Of a DNA stretch of 13,854 bases, positions 1 to 9,328 are shown one piece after another. The stretch lies in the IMG/VR virus record IMGVR_UViG_2585427748_000003, one strand, 5' to 3'. The stretch is from a virus. Lineage: Duplodnaviria > Heunggongvirae > Uroviricota > Caudoviricetes. Position 1 is the first letter of the stretch. Each line of letters opens with the position of its first letter. A program made the translations under genes and the position numbers. The notes below the pieces were generated by a model. It was given only the letters and a program-made list of their open reading frames with translations. It had not been told where the DNA came from and searched no databases.

Positions 1-747
1 GACTGGCTGAAGAAAGAGATACAGCGCGTATACGATGAAAATCACAAGGTATACGGTGTGCGTAAAGTCTGGCGTCAGTTGTTACGGGAAGGTATCAGAG
101 TGGCCAGATGCACTGTGGCACGTCTCATGGCGGTTATGGGACTTGCCGGTGTTCTCCGGGGTAAAAAGGTCCGTACGACCATCAGCCGGAAAGCCGTTGC
201 CGCAGGCGACCGCGTAAACCGTCAGTTCGTGGCAGAACGACCTGACCAGCTGTGGGTGGCTGATTTTACTTACGTCAGCACATGGCAGGGCTTCGTCTAT
301 GTGGCGTTCATCATTGATGTGTTTGCCGGATACATTGTGGGGTGGCGGGTCTCATCGTCCATGGAGACGACATTCGTGCTGGATGCACTGGAGCAGGCGT
401 TATGGGCCCGTCGACCGTCCGGCACGGTCCATCACAGTGATAAAGGTTCTCAGTATGTATCGCTGGCCTACACACAGCGGCTTAAGGAAGCCGGATTACT
501 GGCATCAACAGGAAGTACAGGCGACTCGTATGACAACGCGATGGCGGAGAGCATCAATGGTCTTTACAAAGCGGAGGTAATACACCGTAAGAGCTGGAAA
601 AACCGTGCAGAAGTGGAACTGGCCACACTCACGTGGGTGGACTGGTATAACAATCGACGATTGCTGGAAAGGCTGGGCCATACTCCTCCGGCAGAAGCAG
701 AAAAAGCTTATTATGCTTCCATCGGAAACGATGATCTGGCAGCCTGA
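1..747 (+). CDS. IS3-family transposase OrfB (DDE integrase core), 5'-partial at window edge
   Basis: Frame 1 translates from base 1 as DWLKKEIQRVYDENHKVYGVRKVWRQLLREG... (the track's ORF 58-747 is the same frame from an internal GTG). DDE-type signatures are present: WVADFTYV, HHSDKGSQY, ESINGLYKAE. Confidence 0.85.
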   Translation, partial: DWLKKEIQRVYDENHKVYGVRKVWRQLLREGIRVARCTVARLMAVMGLAGVLRGKKVRTTISRKAVAAGDRVNRQFVAERPDQLWVADFTYVSTWQGFVYVAFIIDVFAGYIVGWRVSSSMETTFVLDALEQALWARRPSGTVHHSDKGSQYVSLAYTQRLKEAGLLASTGSTGDSYDNAMAESINGLYKAEVIHRKSWKNRAEVELATLTWVDWYNNRRLLERLGHTPPAEAEKAYYASIGNDDLAA

Positions 748-789
748 GTTCACAGATAAAACACTCTCCAGGAAACCCGGGGCGGTTCA
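1..789 (+). mobile_element. 3' portion of an IS3-family insertion sequence (IS629-like), including the right terminal inverted repeat; continues left of the window
   Basis: Transposase OrfB frame is open from base 1 to TGA at 745-747 and is followed by about 42 bp ending ...CCAGGAAACCCGGGGCGGTTCA at 789. The reverse complement TGAACCGCCCCGGG... matches the terminal repeat I remember for IS629/IS3-group elements. IS629 assignment is from memory; the end position is +/- a few bp. Confidence 0.7.
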
Positions 790-1333
790 CTTCCGGTAGC
801 GCGTCCGCCACCTGATTGCGGACCGCCCACCAGGATAATTCAGCCAGCGATAATTCCCGTTCCTGCGAGCCATTCATTGCATGGCGTATGACGTCAATCA
901 TCCATGCAGACAGGTTTTGGTGAGCAAGTTGCCCGAGTGATTCGGAGGTCTGGTCGCGCAGCTGGTTGTCGCAGTGCCAGCACAACACCATTGCGCCGGT
1001 ACCATAACGGTGAATGACGGTTTCACTGTGGTGATAATCGCCGTGTGGCCACTGGCAGGATTTAACATGGCGCAGTAACCAGTCAGACAATGCGCCAGCG
1101 CCACCAGCAGCACGAATCACTCGTTCGTCGCTGAAAAATGGCAGTAATGATTTATCCTCCGCCAGCGGCTGGCGAACGGCAGGAACGACCCCGGACGACA
1201 GATTACGCATGCTTTTCGGTTCCGGCTCCACCAGTACCCGGGTATTGTGGAATACCGGCATGGATTCACGGCCCGGCTTAACGATCACCAGCCCGAGTTC
1301 CGGTACCAGAACAGGTCGAAGTAATACCCGCAC
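790..1333 (-). pseudogene. Hypothetical phage protein, 3' end interrupted by the IS insertion (native coding part only)
   Basis: Minus-strand ORF from GTG at 1333 with GGAGG just upstream; protein-like composition (..CQWPHGDYHHSETVIHRYG..LCWHCD..). The frame runs uninterrupted across the predicted IS end at 789 into IS sequence, so the native C-terminus is missing. Family not recognised. Confidence 0.45.
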
Positions 1334-2021: not shown

Positions 2022-2047
2022 AAAAGCCCTGTTAGCGCAGGGCTTTT
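2022..2047 (-). terminator. Hairpin overlapping the stop codon of the ImmA-like gene (AAAAGCCCTG-ttagcg-CAGGGCTTTT); putative terminator
   Basis: 10-bp stem including A/T pairs, 6-nt loop, short T-run on both strands. Confidence 0.45.
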
Positions 2048-2522
2048 ACATATAAAAATCGAACGACATCTGTTGTGTTCTCACGCCAATTGTTTCCAGT
2101 ACGATATCCGCAAATGTATCTGCCTGCCATTCTGCATCCTCAATACGAGTAGGTTCTTTAACTGAAAAGTGTAAAACTGCTTTGTGTCCAAGAAGCAAAT
2201 GACCTAGCTCGTGGAAGATAACAGCAAGTGCATGCTCTTCCCCAAGGCAAGCATTCACATATATTTTATTGGGAACCGTAATTGTTAGAGAAGCGGGGTC
2301 ACAATGTCCGATAGTTAGATCATACGTCAGAGCCTCCCACTCTTTGTCGGTCCTGACGTCAAGAGTAACCCCATAAATTGACAGGCTTTCAAAGAACATA
2401 TCATAACGCTTTCTTTTGCGCTTTGAGGCTGTAAGACCAATAGCATTACAGAAGTTTATAGCTCTGTAGGCTATTTCTTCTTCTTGCATCGGTGACACCC
2501 TGTTACCTCTCATTTGATACAT
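2046..2522 (-). CDS. ImmA/IrrE-family (COG2856-like) zinc metallopeptidase
   Basis: 158-aa ORF with HEXXH motif (HELGHLLLGH); start ATG lies 2 nt after the stop of the upstream XRE gene, with GAGGGG SD inside that gene's 3' end (translational coupling). Confidence 0.8.
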   Translation of the reverse strand: MYQMRGNRVSPMQEEEIAYRAINFCNAIGLTASKRKRKRYDMFFESLSIYGVTLDVRTDKEWEALTYDLTIGHCDPASLTITVPNKIYVNACLGEEHALAVIFHELGHLLLGHKAVLHFSVKEPTRIEDAEWQADTFADIVLETIGVRTQQMSFDFYM

Positions 2523-2524
2523 AA

Positions 2525-2884
2525 TTACCCCTCATTGTTATTAATCTTTTGCAATAAATCTGCAAAACTCTTTAGCTGTTCCGGCGTAAACTGCGACTTA
2601 GCGAATCCCGCTACAAGCATTTTCTGTTGCTGAGACAAACCGTTTACTGGAACTGAGTCATTCGCAACTGCCGCTAGCTCCTGTAACCCTTCAATTTCTA
2701 CACCTTTGGCCTTGAAGTAAGAATCAATCTTCTTAACCCACTTCAGAGGTATTTTTTTGCTACCAGTTTCTAAACCGCTAAGAAACGCTGGCGTAGTGCC
2801 CAGTTCTTGAGACATAGTCAGAAGAGTACTGTCAGTATCGATCCTCGCTTTTCTAACGGCCTTACCGAATTCAGTGAGTGCCAT
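2525..2884 (-). CDS. XRE-family helix-turn-helix transcriptional regulator (ImmR-like partner)
   Basis: 119-aa ORF; N-terminal region fits the Cro/C1-type HTH pattern (..STLLTMSQELGTTPAFLSGLETG..). GAGGA SD 8 nt upstream of the ATG at 2884. Confidence 0.8.
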   Translation of the reverse strand: MALTEFGKAVRKARIDTDSTLLTMSQELGTTPAFLSGLETGSKKIPLKWVKKIDSYFKAKGVEIEGLQELAAVANDSVPVNGLSQQQKMLVAGFAKSQFTPEQLKSFADLLQKINNNEG

Positions 2885-3029: not shown

Positions 3030-3060
3030 ACAAAAAGAACAAAACCCGCCGAAGCGGGTT
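3030..3060 (-). terminator. Intrinsic terminator for leftward (minus-strand) transcription from the small-gene/hok operon
   Basis: Minus strand reads AACCCGC-TTCG-GCGGGTT followed by TTTTGTTCTTTTTGTG. Copy 2 of the 23-bp exact repeat (3038-3060). Confidence 0.6.
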
Positions 3061-3128: not shown

Positions 3129-3284
3129 TTACTCCTCAGGTTCGTAAGCTGTGAAGACAGCGACCTCCGTCTGGCCGGTTCGGATTCGTACCTCGCAGAG
3201 GTCTTTCCTCGTTACCAGTGCCGTCACAATGACGGTTAAACAGATGACGATCAGGGCGATTAGCATCGCCTTTTGCTGCTTCAT
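3129..3284 (-). CDS. hok: Hok/Gef-family type I toxin (small membrane peptide, 51 aa)
   Basis: Translation MKQQKAMLIALIVICLTVIVTALVTRKDLCEVRIRTGQTEVAVFTAYEPEE has the Hok/Gef hallmark (hydrophobic helix followed by conserved ..RKxLCEVxIRxGxxEVAxFxAYE..). AAGGAG SD 9 nt upstream. An in-frame upstream ATG at 3341 gives the track's 70-aa frame; whether that is a mok-like reading frame I cannot tell. Confidence 0.8.
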   Translation of the reverse strand: MKQQKAMLIALIVICLTVIVTALVTRKDLCEVRIRTGQTEVAVFTAYEPEE

Positions 3285-3329
3285 AGCCTGCTTCTCCTTG
3301 CCTTTCGGCACGTAAGAGGCTAACCTACG

Positions 3330-3400
3330 TGTGTAGAGCATAGATATGGCCTCAGATTAATGTTAAGCGTCTTGCCGGACGCGTAATGTTAACTGGGGCT
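3330..3400 (+). ncRNA. sok: Predicted Sok-like antisense RNA opposite the hok leader/upstream start region (approximate)
   Basis: By analogy with hok/sok loci only. Candidate plus-strand promoter TTGCCT (3298-3303), 17-bp spacer, TAACCT (3321-3326). No clear terminator found; boundaries are guesses. Confidence 0.2.
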
Positions 3401-3575
3401 TTTCTCTATCTGCCTTTTGGTGTTCATGCCTGAGACAGATAGCCTCAAGCACCCGCTGCAATTCTACTTAACTCTCCTTTTCCCGCAAACCGTTTTTATC
3501 CCCAGCGGCAAATCGAATACACCACCAGCGCCACCGCCATCGCAATTCCTACCGTTGTTAATGCTTCAGGCCAGG

Positions 3576-3920
3576 TCATCGTAAAATATCCTCCACGCTT
3601 ATCAGTCCGTTCCGCTCCAGATAACTCATCGCCTTATCCGGTAATTTGCAGTCTGGCTTCGCTTTCCTCAGTTGCCAGGTTAACTGCTTTACCAGCATGG
3701 TTAACTCATCGACCAGACGCTGATATCCCACTGGTTTGTATTCATGCAATTTACCGGCTGGCTCTGCTGCCAGCGATACCAGTGCGATTTCCAGAACAGC
3801 AATATCCATCTTATATGTGCGGATGATGTCATGGTCGATTGTGCCCGGTATGCACAGTCTCTGTGCTTCAATAGTCTCCTCTGCGTGAGCTATTAACTGC
3901 TCTCTGGTAAAAGTCGTCAT
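3576..3920 (-). CDS. Hypothetical small phage protein (114 aa)
   Basis: ORF with AAGGGG SD; its ATG overlaps the stop of the upstream 55-aa ORF (ATGA). N-terminus [15 protein letters not shown].. resembles that of the 55-aa ORF. Confidence 0.6.
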
Positions 3921-4084
3921 GCCGTAGCCCCTTCTTGATATTTTTCAAACCAGAACACAACCGGCTCTGCTTCCAGCGATGCCAGCGCAATCCGTGCCAG
4001 TTCCATTTGTTCACCACGGGTAAGCCCGTTTTCAAGCGGGTTTTTAATGAACAATTCAATACGTTCTTTGGTAATAGTGGTCAT
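3917..4084 (-). CDS. Hypothetical small protein (55 aa), below the ORF-track length cutoff; short paralog of the N-terminal part of the 114-aa protein
   Basis: Hand translation [55 protein letters not shown]; strong AAGGAG SD 7 nt upstream of the ATG at 4084; stop overlaps the next start (ATGA). Confidence 0.6.
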
Positions 4085-4094
4085 GTGTTACTCC

Positions 4095-4358
4095 TTAACC
4101 CGCAGTGCTTTCAACTGATGAGGGGAACAAAATCTTTTCATCAAACCCTGCATTCATATCATGAACAGCAACACACCAATCCATCGACGAACGATTATCA
4201 AGAGCCTCCATGATTTCATCCATGCGGCGTAGGTCATACAGGTAAATGCTTTTATCGCCAATGGTGTAAAAGCCAATTTTTTTCGGTGATGGACAGCGAT
4301 CAAGAACTTCCTGTAATTCGTTCAACCATGCCCGTTCTTTTTTTGTCAAAGTTGCCAT
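4095..4358 (-). CDS. Hypothetical small protein (87 aa)
   Basis: Internal ATG at 4358 (MATLTKKERAWLNELQ..) preferred over the track's longer frame because an AAGGA SD sits 9 nt upstream and it abuts the stop of the upstream gene. Confidence 0.55.
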   Translation of the reverse strand: MATLTKKERAWLNELQEVLDRCPSPKKIGFYTIGDKSIYLYDLRRMDEIMEALDNRSSMDWCVAVHDMNAGFDEKILFPSSVESTAG

Positions 4359-4359
4359 A

Positions 4360-4578
4360 TCAGTTTTCCTTATACGGATTAATTTTATTGTGCAGTGTGT
4401 TGAACGACGCCCATACAACGTCGGTATACAATTCAGTAACTGGCTCAATTATTTTCCCGATTGCCCAGACAAAAATTAGAGGGGATATCGGTATCATCAA
4501 TACGATAAACAGAATGAGAAACAAAAATTCTGTCGCTCTACTTTTTTGCGGATATTCTTTTCTGAATAATGTAGTCAT
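4360..4578 (-). CDS. Small membrane protein (72 aa, one predicted transmembrane helix)
   Basis: Hydrophobic stretch FLFLILFIVLMIPISPLIFVWAIG; preceded by a GGGAGG - hairpin - AUG arrangement. Confidence 0.55.
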   Translation of the reverse strand: MTTLFRKEYPQKSRATEFLFLILFIVLMIPISPLIFVWAIGKIIEPVTELYTDVVWASFNTLHNKINPYKEN

Positions 4579-4610
4579 TTCTTACCGCCCTTTCGGGCGG
4601 CCTCCCGACA

Positions 4611-4823
4611 TTAATCGTTGTGGTAACTCATGGCTTCATTTGCAGCATCAACCGGATCAACTTCCCACCAGCAATAATTTGGTGCGTTTCCTTCAGGTGT
4701 CCACGGTTCTAATTCATTTTTTGCCACATTCTCGTCGCCAGTAATTTTAAAAATCTGTTCAGAGAATTTTTTCACCCACTCGTTATATTTTTCAGTGTTA
4801 ATAATTTTCTGTGTATTTGACAT
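4611..4823 (-). CDS. Hypothetical small protein (70 aa)
   Basis: Strong GGAGGT SD 7 nt upstream of the ATG at 4823; protein-like composition. Confidence 0.65.
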   Translation of the reverse strand: MSNTQKIINTEKYNEWVKKFSEQIFKITGDENVAKNELEPWTPEGNAPNYCWWEVDPVDAANEAMSYHND

Positions 4824-4928
4824 AGATATACCTCCAGTTAAGGATTAAATTTTATTTACAGTGCTGAACTTAATTATTCAGATTTGGATTATGCTTTCTC
4901 TTCACGAAGTTCCGATTGTTAATTTGGC

Positions 4929-5351
4929 TCACAACAGCACCTTCTGAAAATTACCCTGATAAAACGACAATATGCGCTGCATAACTTCGCTCTTCCGGCA
5001 CTCGCGACAGATTATGTTCTGACGCCTGTCGTAGCGACGTATTTCTCCGTCAGGTAATGACCAGATAAGGTCCGGATCAACCGCAGATGGTTTCTTCAGC
5101 TTTGCCCTTGAGAGCTTTTTACGGGCATTTTGCCAGTCCTTACGCGCCTGTTCAGACGGGAATAACCCGTAACCAGAGTTGTATACATCGCCACTGGCAA
5201 CCAGCTCTCTGGCCAGAACGCTCATCAGATATCTTGTTGCCCCAGTTTTAGTTTCCAGTTGTCGTAACGTCTCGCGCCCACTCTGGCGTACGAGTTCAAC
5301 AACCTGCCCTTTAATTTTTTCCCGCTCTTCTTGTGTAAAAACTTTTGCCAC
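4929..5351 (-). CDS. Hypothetical protein (140 aa), possibly DNA-binding
   Basis: GTG start with AGGAGGG SD 4 nt upstream; basic protein with a helix-turn-helix-like stretch. Family not recognised. Confidence 0.55.
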   Translation of the reverse strand: MAKVFTQEEREKIKGQVVELVRQSGRETLRQLETKTGATRYLMSVLARELVASGDVYNSGYGLFPSEQARKDWQNARKKLSRAKLKKPSAVDPDLIWSLPDGEIRRYDRRQNIICRECRKSEVMQRILSFYQGNFQKVLL

Positions 5352-5391: not shown

Positions 5392-6354
5392 TTACCCCCT
5401 GAAGCCCGGCGGAATTTCAGTGTCCGGTTCAGAAATGTGATTCACGCAACGCTGCGCAGGCGAACGCCCCAGGCGGATAACCAGTTCATCCCATTTTTCC
5501 CGGAGTTTTGCCGGACTCATGATGTTTTTTACCCAGAACGAATCCCGCTGGAGACGCCCAAACATTTCACAAATTTGTCTGTGAGTTCTGCCATCCAGCA
5601 TCCGCATTGTGCGAACGTCATTGGCCCATGCTGTCCAGTTGGGTTCTTTCGGTCTAGTGATCTCGCCATCATCGCTGGCCGCCTGCTCGTAAAGACTCAC
5701 GATTCGTCCCCAGATCCACTGTGCGCACACCAAATCTTCCTGACTTCCCCACTGGCGTTTTTTCGCACTGAACACAACCGCGTCAGGGTGTCGGGTTAAA
5801 AAATCCTGTTCAGCCGTCTGCGGGTCCGGTTGCGAAGCGTCCGGACAAGAAGATCTTTTATCTGACGGATCAGGTTTTAATACTGACGGATCGGGGTTAA
5901 TCATCGCCCCCCTAATCGGCAGTTTTTTATCAACAGTTGATCCATCAAAATTTGACGGGTCAACCGTTGAGGGGTCAATATTTGACGGGTCAACTGTTAA
6001 CGGGTCATTTTTTGCCGGGCTAATTTTTCTTTTCGGTTTATATGACTCACGCGCCGCCGCCGCAGCTGCTTCGAGTTTTTCCACATTAAGCCGATAGATA
6101 TTGCTTACATTACGCCCACCGACCTTACGCTCTTCCTTCGTCAGCCAGCCCTCTTTCGCCAGTTCTGCAATAGCCGATTTCACTGTGGATTCACTTCTTG
6201 CACCGATCTGACGCCGGATAGTTTCAATGGCAGGCCATGACACGCCCTCGTCATTGCTGTAGTCTGCAAGACGGGCCATAACCGCCACCCTGGATAAGAT
6301 CATGCCGGTGAAGGCGCACCCTTCCCAGACAAGACCATGAAGCTTGCTGCTCAT
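5392..6354 (-). CDS. Putative replication initiation / replisome-organiser protein (N-terminal HTH domain, repeat linker, C-terminal domain)
   Basis: Position directly after the ydaS/ydaT-like genes in the rightward-equivalent operon; N-terminus resembles initiator-type HTH domains; linker made of pentapeptide repeats (TVDPS/NIDPS) encoded by iteron-like DNA repeats. Start placed at ATG 6354 (GGGGG SD) rather than the track's GTG at 6369. Function inferred from architecture and synteny. Confidence 0.55.
   Translation of the reverse strand: MSSKLHGLVWEGCAFTGMILSRVAVMARLADYSNDEGVSWPAIETIRRQIGARSESTVKSAIAELAKEGWLTKEERKVGGRNVSNIYRLNVEKLEAAAAAARESYKPKRKISPAKNDPLTVDPSNIDPSTVDPSNFDGSTVDKKLPIRGAMINPDPSVLKPDPSDKRSSCPDASQPDPQTAEQDFLTRHPDAVVFSAKKRQWGSQEDLVCAQWIWGRIVSLYEQAASDDGEITRPKEPNWTAWANDVRTMRMLDGRTHRQICEMFGRLQRDSFWVKNIMSPAKLREKWDELVIRLGRSPAQRCVNHISEPDTEIPPGFRG
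5953..6012. repeat. Four tandem 15-bp iteron-like repeats (TGACGGGTCAA-type, each an imperfect palindrome) inside the replication gene; two related copies at 5863-5872 and 5884-5893
   Basis: Units begin at 5953, 5968, 5983 and 5998 with exact 15-bp periodicity; an AT-rich stretch (about 5921-5952) lies immediately downstream in the gene's transcription direction. Confidence 0.55.
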
Positions 6355-6376
6355 AAAACCCCCGAACACCGTGCTT

Positions 6377-7136: not shown

Positions 7137-7166
7137 ATATTAGGCTTAGCCTAATGAAATTGTCAA
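7137..7166 (-). promoter_or_regulatory. pR-like sigma-70 promoter for the ydaS/ydaT/replication operon
   Basis: Minus strand: -35 TTGACA (plus 7161-7166), 18-bp spacer, -10 TAATAT (plus 7137-7142). Operator A overlaps the spacer/-10 and operator B abuts the -35. Confidence 0.6.
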
Positions 7167-9076: not shown

Positions 9077-9328
9077 CGCTGCAACGCCCTCTGTTATCAA
9101 TTTTCTGGTGACGTTTGGCGGTATCAGTTTTACTCCGTGACTGCTCTGCCGCCCTTTTTAAAGTGAATTTTGTGATGTGGTGAATGCGGCTGAGCGCACG
9201 CGGAACAGTTAAAACCAAAAACAGTGTTATGGGTGGATTCTCTGTATCCGGCGTTAATTGTTAACTGGTTAACGTCACCTGGAGGCACCAGGCACCGCAT
9301 CACAAAATTCATTGTTGAGGACGCGATA

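Follow-up and report, generated by a model that had tools for sequence, protein, structure and literature searches.

Seven small accessory genes, probably early-lytic, form a mosaic block in a Rac-type lambdoid prophage of E. coli

The nin region of phage lambda (ren-ninB...ninI, from P to Q) is a run of small, overlapping and dispensable-looking genes with replication genes upstream and late-regulation genes downstream. Its first member, Ren, is known for allowing the phage to escape exclusion by Rex (RexAB), and to our knowledge the mechanism by which it does so is still without an explanation decades after its discovery. Classical morons, by comparison, are lysogen-expressed units equipped with a promoter and a terminator of their own. 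Accessory regions enriched in phage counter-defence genes have been described as hypervariable with conserved flanks (bioRxiv 10.1101/2023.04.06.535777). The leftward operon holds the exo-xis or ea region (lambda ea22, ea8.5 and orf60a/61/63/73; the ea genes of P22), a dense set of non-essential small early genes with mosaic boundaries, and the int-exo region as a whole affects both lysogenisation and induction (PMC3824215, PMC10789677, PMC7093339).

The locus described here lies in a 13,854-nucleotide stretch of DNA (the window) and resembles each of these systems in part. In our reading it is probably a mosaic set of seven small accessory genes that a Rac-type lambdoid prophage expresses early in lytic growth. 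The block is real but ordinary, in that its first gene is a relative of Ren and the others belong to catalogued, uncharacterised phage families. It shares with the exo-xis region the dense packing of small early genes and the mosaic boundaries, but its place is behind the replication genes of the rightward operon instead of in the leftward one. As in the nin region, the genes are small, overlapping and dispensable-looking, with replication genes upstream and late-regulation genes (here DUF968/RusA/Q) downstream, although the recombination and junction-resolving genes (DUF968, RusA) stand farther downstream, past hokD. Like phage accessory regions and morons, the block occupies a variable cargo slot with conserved bounding genes; unlike classical morons, it has no promoter and terminator of its own that a consensus scan could find. 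The features referred to below are these, from upstream to downstream:

7137-7166, minus strand: pR-like promoter, TTGACA-18-TAATAT, from the consensus scan; faces the divergent racR
5392-6369, minus strand: replication-initiator-like gene (HTH_36, weak DnaD_N, by Pfam), directly upstream of g1
4929-5351, minus strand: g1, 140 aa, GTG start, basic (pI 9.95)
4824-4928, minus strand: AT-rich g1-g2 spacer, 105 nt; the proximal ~60 nt are a g2-linked leader and the distal part is g1-linked
4611-4823, minus strand: g2, 70 aa, acidic (pI 4.5), soluble
4584-4601, minus strand: GC-rich hairpin, CCGCCC-GAAA-GGGCGG, -15.5 kcal/mol, between a GGGAGG and the g3 start codon
4360-4578, minus strand: g3, 72 aa, with a single hydrophobic helix near residues 17-40
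4095-4358, minus strand: g4, 87 aa counted from ATG, acidic
3917-4084, minus strand: g5, 55 aa
3576-3920, minus strand: g6, 114 aa
3496-3579, minus strand: g7, 27 codons, one transmembrane helix, GGAGGA 9 nt upstream, not annotated by PGAP
3129-3454, minus strand: hokD toxin gene with sok/mok region (Pfam HOK_GEF; Rfam sok, 117 bits at 3279-3454)
3043-3060, minus strand: terminator-like hairpin past hokD, from the terminator scan

A preliminary description of this DNA had pointed to a cassette of six small genes at 3576-5351. All six open reading frames are present on the minus strand with the coordinates and lengths listed above, and PGAP calls the same six coding sequences in an E. coli chromosome that matches at 100% identity; the count itself has to be raised, since a seventh frame, g7 (3496-3579), belongs to the block. 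The spacers, read from the sequence, are 40 nt between the replication gene and g1, 105 nt between g1 and g2, 32 nt between g2 and g3, 1 nt between g3 and g4 and 10 nt between g4 and g5, with a 4-nt ATGA overlap between g5 and g6. The several overlapping stop and start codons that had been proposed thus reduce to one true overlap among the six genes, though the g3/g4 and g4/g5 junctions are close enough for coupling. Strong Shine-Dalgarno sequences had also been proposed, and SD-like sites (AGGAGG, GGAGG, AAGGA, AAGGAG, GAAGGGG) do precede all of the block genes, the one for g3 being a GGGAGG that lies 22 nt upstream, beyond the hairpin. Translation would be coupled from g3 through g4, g5 and g6 to g7 by way of these short or overlapping junctions.

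That the frames are genuine is better argued from conservation than from their extent. The six span 91.7% of one strand, a value equalled in 0 of 1000 Markov shuffles, but this is a weak test, as the shuffles average 47% and reach 91.4%. Each of the six proteins has a full-length PHROG match (E 1e-19 to 1e-51), which is the stronger evidence, and each is identical to an already catalogued E. coli protein; five occur on at least 1000 contigs each, the exact g1 sequence on 265. Synonymous changes exceed non-synonymous ones in g1 (32:16) and g4 (6:1), a pattern indicative of purifying selection on both, while g2 (8:9) and g3 (10:8, or 4:11 against the Stx phage ArgO145) are less constrained. NCBIfam returned no match for any of the seven proteins, a PDB sequence search with g1, g2, g4 and g6 gave nothing below E 0.18, and in the literature on DUF977, DUF4014, LygF and the six WP accessions we found no functional study. 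The name LygF is traceable to Salmonella genome notes only.

The host element is a Rac-type lambdoid prophage of E. coli. Loci 100% identical to this one in E. coli chromosomes adjoin ompW and run in the order int, xis, exonuclease, dicB/DicF, racR, ydaS-like, ydaT, replication gene, block, hokD, HTH/ImmA, DUF968, RusA, Q; the placement of the block between a replication gene (HTH_36/DnaD_N-like) and hokD, part of the original account, is borne out by Pfam. An IS3-family transposase stands at the left end of the window, and the prophage may be defective. A consensus promoter scan, from which weak or non-sigma-70 promoters could escape, brought up nothing ahead of the seven genes, the g1-g2 spacer included. 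The terminator scan gave no convincing terminator inside the block, the only terminator-like sites on the minus strand being that at 3060-3043, after hok, and a weak 5-bp stem within g5. Because the block lies on the same strand as, and downstream of, the ydaS-like, ydaT and replication genes, with no internal promoter or terminator found, it would most likely be silent in the lysogen, under RacR, and be transcribed by read-through after induction, the probable source being the pR-like promoter at 7137-7166. Strand, spacing and consensus scans are what make co-transcription from pR the most likely arrangement.

With respect to g1, the Pfam family DUF977 matches along its whole length (E 1.5e-31, profile positions 1-134 of 134), and phrog_142, labelled "Ren-like exclusion protein", matches at E 2.8e-47 over positions 1-114 of 116. 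Lambda Ren falls in the same phrog_142 (E 1.6e-41), whereas the DUF977 profile does not match it. PHROG files this family under "moron, auxiliary metabolic gene and host takeover". The protein can be divided into a modelled winged-helix N-domain (residues 1-85), a basic linker of low confidence and a conserved C-terminal helix motif in common with Ren, which reads NIICRECRKSEVMQRILSFY in g1 and NLVFKECRQSAAMKRVLAVY in Ren; the model comes from a shallow alignment, and its C-terminal third is of low confidence. Among the relatives listed by a homologue search all are at least 89% identical to g1. Weak MarR/Crp-type HTH matches in Ren stand alongside the winged-helix model of g1, and both genes lie right after the replication genes of the rightward early operon, an order seen also in six related prophages or phages. 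The two proteins nonetheless differ, Ren having 96 residues against the 140 of g1 with its extra basic linker, and their pairwise similarity is confined to the C-terminal motif.

We therefore regard g1 as matching lambda Ren in position as well as in sequence, a link that one PHROG profile and a motif of ~25 residues point to. It would be expected to act with the replication module, by binding nucleic acid or a partner protein; alternatively, by analogy with Ren, it would protect the phage from Rex-type exclusion. The immunity region of this prophage, unlike that of lambda, is of the RacR type and lacks rexAB beside the repressor, so that a role for g1 in escape from Rex is not obviously needed.

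The g2 product matches phrog_4659 (E 4.8e-51); a word-based search finds full-length relatives only at ~84% identity or more, and an exhaustive HMMER search of 1.8 billion representatives adds two genuine distant relatives only, at ~46% identity; by these searches g2 is a near-orphan, apparently limited to Escherichia and Shigella. The product of g3 belongs to DUF4014 (E 3.7e-26, full length, positions 1-72 of 72; phrog_1832, E 2.1e-45) and is a predicted single-pass membrane protein, its hydrophobic stretch EFLFLILFIVLMIPISPLIFVWAIG covering residues 17-40, in agreement with the one transmembrane helix originally assigned to the 72-codon frame. Two other genomes carry the gene with an annotated frameshift, and its substitutions relative to ArgO145 (4 synonymous, 11 non-synonymous) look near-neutral. 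Folding and cross-locus comparison indicate that the hairpin in its leader stays with g3 also at loci that have another gene upstream. As a canonical terminator this hairpin was rejected, no T-run following the stem.

An alpha/beta protein of phrog_1714 is encoded by g4. In its family RCPSP is invariant, and the motifs GFYTIGD and FPSxVESTAG are conserved. The family occurs in Enterobacterales alone, across which the 87-aa length and the motifs are kept, and the confident model of g4 has no fold match among solved structures (PDB40).

Both g5 and g6 begin with an N-terminal module, "MTTITKER…", that is common to DUF551/EaA-type proteins (consensus MT(T/S)IT(K/R)E...). BLASTP of g6 against g5 gives E 1e-5 across this module, which also aligns with the DUF551 protein P0079, the "Ea22" protein of phage 689R5 and a 53-aa protein of the related locus L007. 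Nucleotides 1-125 of g5 are 99% identical to the starts of DUF551 genes in loci L008 and L009, and nucleotides 110-168 align at 91.5% identity with the 3' terminus of the HNH gene gp11 of ArgO145. From these alignments g5 is evidently a recombination chimera, in which a DUF551/EaA-type N-module is joined to the final 16 residues encoded by an HNH-endonuclease gene, and it may be only a tolerated recombination scar. It has no module other than the N-module, matches phrog_3323, phrog_60 and phrog_660, and database sources call it "Eaa protein". For its part, g6 matches phrog_660 (E 8.2e-43) in two stretches, the N-module and a C-terminal module, without the middle part. The C-terminal DUF551 domain gives no Pfam match in g5 or g6, P0079 matching at E 5e-20. 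Identification of either protein with Ea22 was considered and rejected: with the Pfam cut-off relaxed to E 10 the Ead_Ea22 profile (PF13935) still finds nothing in g5 or g6, the BLASTP comparisons with lambda Ea22 stay at E 0.45 and 1.3, and lambda Ea22 sits in phrog_250 and phrog_368 as opposed to phrog_3323, 60 and 660. The names "Ea22" and "EaA" in some phage records are accordingly loose.

The start codon of g7 overlaps the stop codon of g6 (ATGA), and the homology of ArgO145 to the window stops directly past the g7 stop codon. A diverged 27-codon copy, MNWPEAFAITGVAMAIAFLVYVICRWG, sits after the DUF551 gene in L009; length and ends are kept at 70% DNA identity. Full-length tblastn matches occur in 91 phage records at 55-96% identity, many of them Stx phages, and in phage 689R5 the gene is frameshifted. 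The peptide clusters with 185-aa DUF551 proteins, to which no similarity is seen, and a relationship to DUF551 was dismissed as a clustering artefact.

In about 8 of 12 distinct contexts g4 is followed by an N-module gene. One may propose that g4 and the downstream N-module proteins (g5, g6) form an unrecognised phage effector pair aimed at a host function or an immune system, with g4 binding or regulating proteins that have a common N-terminal adaptor and swappable C-terminal domains (DUF551, HNH, others); g7, the conserved membrane peptide of 27 aa whose translation would be coupled to that of the final array gene, might belong to this unit as well. That g4 always has such a gene after it does not hold, for the arrangement, a lead at this stage, fails in Leclercia and Pectobacterium. 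The proposal of an effector pair seems to us quite doubtful.

The earlier suggestion that this is an exchangeable accessory position is well supported by gene content among relatives, where DUF977 and hokD bracket at least six differing cargo sets. Phage 689R5 has ten small genes in this slot, and strain fS58a a single 495-aa Sll1717-family P-loop ATPase; elsewhere it is filled by DUF4406, an RseB-like gene and DUF551 genes, by DUF7167 and other small ORFs, or by methyltransferases, KilA-N and QueH. The slot between DUF977 and hokD is exchangeable. Of 5426 complete E. coli genomes, 24 have at least 80% of the exact six-gene block and 4303 have parts of it. The break points differ from one relative to the next: 689R5 has exactly 3576-4362 in common with the window (g6, g5, g4), other phages match only g1 with its 3' spacer, and STEC genomes match the whole block minus the N-terminal part of g1. 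Within the g1-g2 spacer the division between g2-linked and g1-linked parts emerges from alignment of the upstream regions in L002, L005 and L007-L009 and from phage matches that cover positions 4831-5350 of the window together with g1. Relatives of g2, g3, the tail of g5, g6 and g7 occur in the int-exo region of the Stx phage ArgO145, and as for g4, its relatives in prophages of Edwardsiella and Serratia lie between recT and int, those in Klebsiella after the replication genes. These comparisons show at least three independently exchangeable modules, g1, g2-g3 and g4-g7, of which the latter two are drawn from the pool of small genes found in the int/xis-exo (ea) region of Stx phages and other enterobacterial prophages.

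The preliminary description held that none of the genes carries an assignable motif. This does not stand for g1 (DUF977, phrog_142) and g3 (DUF4014), nor for g5 and g6, which belong to a modular N-terminal family. It is thus only partly true, g2 being a near-orphan and the model of g4 having no solved-fold match. Homology to NinB, NinG or RusA, the other prospect raised, was not found: the block was rejected as a set of NinB-NinI/RusA relatives, there being no tblastn match in lambda (nothing below E 0.09 for the seven proteins against 27.5-44.5 kb) and no Pfam match. Against the K-12 Rac prophage, too, tblastn gave nothing significant.

As to function, each product would most likely act alone, as a small early-lytic modulator of host or phage physiology. 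The preliminary description had favoured host takeover, anti-defence or exclusion, a suggestion that gains no direct support here: no PADLOC-DB defence model matches any of the seven at an E cut-off of 0.01, and the scans brought up neither a promoter nor a convincing terminator within the block that would turn its genes into lysogen-expressed morons. A cassette for anti-defence or host takeover, in which the acidic g2 and g4 or the membrane proteins g3 and g7 would inhibit host immunity or function during early lytic growth, is a possible reading, if an unlikely one. It draws on the hypervariability of the slot between conserved flanks, on the small size and acidity of g2 and g4 together with the confident but unmatched model of the latter, and on the record of Ren in Rex escape; small acidic proteins are, however, common in phages whatever their function, and none of the proteins has homology to a characterised anti-defence protein or a relative of solved structure. 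Somewhat further from our preferred reading, and rather unlikely, is a set of modulators of lysis-lysogeny or induction of the kind represented by the exo-xis genes of lambda and Phi24B (orf60a, orf61, orf63, orf73, ea22). The relatives of g2, g3 and g5-g7 in the ArgO145 int-exo region, and those of g4 in Edwardsiella and Serratia, speak for it; but homologues of g2-g7 are absent from lambda and Phi24B, so that the published exo-xis experiments do not cover the block and are not transferable to its genes, and g5 and g6 fall outside the Pfam and PHROG families of lambda Ea22.

That the block is largely evolutionary debris, made up of scars left by recombination and of the decaying leftovers of a defective prophage, now without function, we consider improbable. 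Here one may cite the chimeric g5, the g6 that lacks the middle of its family profile, the frameshifts of g3 in two genomes and its near-neutral divergence from ArgO145, the frameshift of g7 in 689R5 and the IS3-family transposase. Yet all seven frames are intact in this prophage, each with an SD-like site, and the same genes recur in phage genome records, Stx-converting phages included; g1 and g4 are under purifying selection, the latter with its length and motifs held across Enterobacterales, and g7 retains its length and ends. On the strength of the g3 frameshifts and near-neutral changes, the g7 frameshift and the g5 chimera, some members may still be dispensable or decaying. Very improbable, finally, is prophage defence or superinfection-exclusion cargo that is expressed in the lysogen and protects the host. 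The lone large ATPase in the fS58a slot, unlike small early genes and with a putative defence role, would fit such cargo, as would the adjoining hokD and HTH/ImmA pair and the PHROG category of phrog_142; the genes of the block, by contrast, are packed in the same orientation within a repressed early operon, with no PADLOC match for the seven proteins and no internal consensus promoter or flanking terminator.

Read as a mosaic array of early-lytic accessory genes, the block is one more of the small-gene arrays of the sort that every lambdoid phage carries. Its slot is nonetheless a well-delimited test bed, with clear bounds in the Ren-like gene and hokD and with many natural alternative cargoes. 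Its individual members include a longer relative of Ren in g1, a highly conserved protein whose model has no solved-fold match in g4, and in g7 a conserved 27-aa membrane peptide missed by standard annotation. Were any of them to inhibit host defence or to control the induction of Stx-type prophages, this would bear on the biology of prophages in pathogenic E. coli.

All six small genes that the preliminary description had placed between a replication gene and the hok toxin gene are present, with exactly the lengths it gave and every one on the minus strand, and the location itself is correct. Numbered here in transcription order (g1-g6), and together with one further ORF (g7), they form what we call the block.

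Genes of the block, in transcription order
4929-5351, minus strand: g1, 140 aa, GTG start
4611-4823, minus strand: g2, 70 aa
4360-4578, minus strand: g3, 72 aa
4095-4358, minus strand: g4, 87 aa counted from the ATG
3917-4084, minus strand: g5, 55 aa
3576-3920, minus strand: g6, 114 aa
3496-3579, minus strand: g7, 27 codons, with its ATG at 3579 overlapping the g6 stop (ATGA) and GGAGGA 9 nt upstream

Complete E. coli chromosomes carry a 100% identical stretch in which PGAP annotates the same six CDS. The six ORFs fill 91.7% of one strand, a coverage reached in 0 of 1000 Markov shuffles; with a shuffle maximum of 91.4% this is a weak test, so the main support for their reality is conservation. 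Each of the six proteins has a full-length PHROG family match (E 1e-19 to 1e-51), and the exact sequences recur in at least 1000 contigs each for g2-g6 and in 265 for g1. Codon substitutions are biased toward synonymous over non-synonymous changes in g1 (32:16) and g4 (6:1), and more weakly so in g2 (8:9) and g3 (10:8, and 4:11 against the Stx phage ArgO145). The spacers measure 40 nt from the replication gene to g1, then 105 (g1-g2), 32 (g2-g3), 1 (g3-g4), and 10 nt (g4-g5), with a 4-nt ATGA overlap at the g5/g6 junction. Of the tight packing and coupling proposed for the six, g3-g6 are spaced closely enough for translational coupling, true overlap being confined to the g5/g6 pair; the SD-like sequences are found upstream of every gene.

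The product of g7 is a peptide with a single hydrophobic helix, left unannotated by PGAP in the identical E. coli locus. By tblastn, 91 phage records, including those of 933W-type and Sakai Stx phages, have full-length matches (55-96% identity), labelled hypothetical protein in some. A copy in strain EPSSH018 has diverged to 70% DNA identity yet is of the same length and preserves both ends (MNWPEAFAITGVAMAIAFLVYVICRWG); it too is ATGA-coupled, there to a DUF551 gene. Homology between the window and ArgO145 runs through g7 and ends directly after its stop codon, downstream of which a toxin-antitoxin pair stands in place of hok. Phage vB_EcoS-689R5 (689R5) has a g7 frameshifted by a 1-nt deletion. 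We conclude that g7 belongs to the block.

The window is a Rac-type lambdoid prophage. Read from right to left, the integrase, excisionase, 804-aa exonuclease, dicB with DicF RNA, racR, ydaS-like cro gene, and ydaT are followed by the replication-initiator-like gene (HTH_36, weak DnaD_N), the block, hokD with its sok region, an HTH/ImmA pair, and DUF968, after which RusA and Q come next in the identical reference locus. The racR gene lies on the strand opposite to the genes after it.

Regulatory features and candidate signals
9103-9154, plus strand: DicF sRNA, adjoining dicB (Rfam, 76.7 bits)
7166-7137, minus strand: pR-like promoter, TTGACA-18-TAATAT
4703-4674, minus strand: 9-of-12 promoter-like match within g2
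3366-3337, minus strand: 9-of-12 promoter-like match in the hok/sok region
3279-3454, minus strand: sok region of the hok locus (Rfam, 117 bits)
3060-3043, minus strand: hairpin with T-run 3' of hok (terminator scan)

Between the pR-like promoter and the hairpin behind hok (7137 to 3060), a minus-strand scan returned just the two 9-of-12 matches, neither of them upstream of any block gene, and a single weak 5-bp terminator-like stem, within g5. On the simplest reading, the block would belong to the early rightward operon that RacR represses, with expression only after induction. Beyond hokD (2046-2884, minus strand) lie an HTH protein of 119 aa and then an ImmA/IrrE-type metallopeptidase of 158 aa (HEXXH; Pfam Peptidase_M78), both of which PADLOC matches weakly to CapH/CapP-like and RmrA models. 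An IS3-family transposase ORF (58-747, plus strand), at the left edge of the window, overlaps an ORF (629-1333, minus strand) that occupies the position of DUF968 in the identical E. coli reference locus, which has no IS there; this copy of the prophage is probably disrupted at that point.

The statement that no gene carries an assignable motif does not hold: g1 belongs to the DUF977/Ren family, g3 is a DUF4014 protein, and g5 and g6 share an N-terminal module. The g1 product matches Pfam DUF977 (E 1.5e-31) and phrog_142, "Ren-like exclusion protein" (E 2.8e-47), the PHROG to which lambda Ren also belongs (E 1.6e-41), and Ren is likewise encoded directly after the replication genes. Compared pairwise, the two proteins have only a C-terminal motif in common (BLASTP E 5e-6, hhalign E 2.5e-5). 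From this shared PHROG, position, and motif, g1 is placed in the Ren family as one of greater length than Ren itself. Its AlphaFold model, based on a shallow alignment, has good confidence over residues 1-85 and poor confidence after them. Ren enables lambda to escape Rex exclusion; g1, like Ren, probably works together with the replication module or shields the phage from an exclusion system. A 177-aa protein found in 32 contigs combines DUF977 and Hok/Gef domains, which suggests that in some prophages a Ren-like gene abuts hok, or is called fused with it, without cargo.

The exchangeability proposed for this location is borne out by the interval between the DUF977 gene and hokD, whose cargo in other strains is very different.

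Cargo between the DUF977 gene and hokD in other strains and phages
689R5: ten small genes
Another arrangement: DUF4406, an RseB-like gene, and DUF551 genes
Another arrangement: DUF7167 and other small ORFs
E. coli fS58a (locus L026, 1929-3416): a single gene for a 495-aa Sll1717-family P-loop ATPase
Another arrangement: methyltransferases, KilA-N, and QueH

The fS58a ATPase could be prophage defence cargo. The block itself divides into modules at gene boundaries: 689R5 shares exactly 3576-4362 (g6, g5, and g4) at 99%, many phages have just g1 and its 3' spacer in common with the window, and STEC chromosomes share everything up to mid-g1. Of 5426 complete E. coli genomes, just 24 have the exact six-gene arrangement (at least 80% coverage), and 4303 contain parts of it. 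In ArgO145 the int-exo region contains relatives of g2, g3, g6, and g7; g4 relatives are located in the recT-int interval in prophages of Edwardsiella and Serratia, but follow the replication genes in Klebsiella. Because the same genes thus occur in the other early operon too, the g2-g7 modules are drawn from a shared pool of "ea"-type small genes able to occupy either.

Modularity extends into g5 and g6, whose shared N-terminal module starts MTTITKER and also heads DUF551 and "EaA"-labelled proteins. The first 125 nt of g5 are 99% identical to the starts of DUF551 genes (comparison loci L008 and L009, ~4342-4491), and nt 110-168, the final 59 nt, correspond to the 3' terminus of the HNH-endonuclease gene of ArgO145 (L002, 5439-5804), both genes encoding the same 16 C-terminal residues. 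Judged by these matches g5 is a chimera, and the 16 nt over which they overlap (nt 110-125), close to the sequence coding for SLEAEP, point to recombination inside the conserved module. The g6 product joins the module to the C-terminal module of phrog_660, without the middle part of that family. Membership in the lambda Ea22 family was considered and rejected for both.

The g2 product is an acidic near-orphan with relatives in Escherichia and Shigella only (at least ~84% identity); when 1.8 billion representatives were searched exhaustively with HMMER, just two genuine distant relatives were gained. A single-pass membrane protein, g3 corresponds to Pfam DUF4014, which is not mentioned in the literature searched, and phrog_1832. 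Its start is preceded at 22 nt by GGGAGG, with a stable GNRA-loop hairpin between (CCGCCC-GAAA-GGGCGG, -15.5 kcal/mol; GGGAGG and hairpin at 4584-4606, minus strand), and this leader, which may be a hairpin-bridged ribosome-binding site, is kept whole with g3 in ArgO145 despite a different upstream gene, the stem there showing pairing-preserving changes (C to U giving G-U; G-U to A-U). The g3 homologues of O157:H7 strain NE1127 (L007, 3941-4158) and strain SD134209 (L008, 4767-4984) carry a frameshift annotation, and in both strains the neighbouring g4 is 100% identical to that of the window.

The g4 family (phrog_1714; ~135 sequence clusters, all Enterobacterales) conserves its 87-aa length, an invariant RCPSP, and the highly conserved GFYTIGD and FPSxVESTAG. 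In about 8 of 12 distinct contexts (E. coli, Edwardsiella, Serratia, Klebsiella, Raoultella) a gene with the g5/g6 N-terminal module follows 9-12 nt downstream, the upstream gene being variable; it is absent in the Leclercia and Pectobacterium contexts. This adjacency could reflect a functional pair or inherited synteny. A g4 with 98-99% protein identity to the window copy, together with its neighbours, also occurs on contigs (L016, L017, L024) assigned to MAGs of Segatella copri and Collinsella sp.; this is almost certainly mis-binned Enterobacteriaceae prophage DNA.

The account we find best supported is that the block would be an array of accessory genes of the early lytic phase, each independent of the others, that rides on the replication operon, with small acidic soluble proteins (g2, g4), tiny membrane proteins (g3, g7), and proteins with the shared N-terminal module (g5, g6). 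That it is instead an anti-defence or host-takeover cassette is possible, if on the unlikely side; g1 has its Ren kinship, NCBIfam and PADLOC gave zero matches for all seven proteins, a PDB sequence search with g1, g2, g4, and g6 gave nothing below E 0.18, and the specific anti-defence role suggested in the preliminary description is unsupported. A set of lysis-lysogeny modulators seems rather unlikely. The published lambda and Phi24B exo-xis experiments are not transferable, since homologues of these genes are absent from both phages; no block protein resembles any lambda exo-xis or Nin protein, the latter in line with the preliminary description.

We consider it improbable that the block is evolutionary debris; one of g5 and g6 may be just a recombination scar, and g1 and g4 show synonymous bias. 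Defence cargo expressed in the lysogen, for which the fS58a gene offers a candidate at the same location, is more doubtful still; the block genes would be expressed only after induction.

As an array of accessory genes, the block is a further instance of a well-known phage feature, its proteins already catalogued and uncharacterised, and g1 is the sole member linked to known biology.
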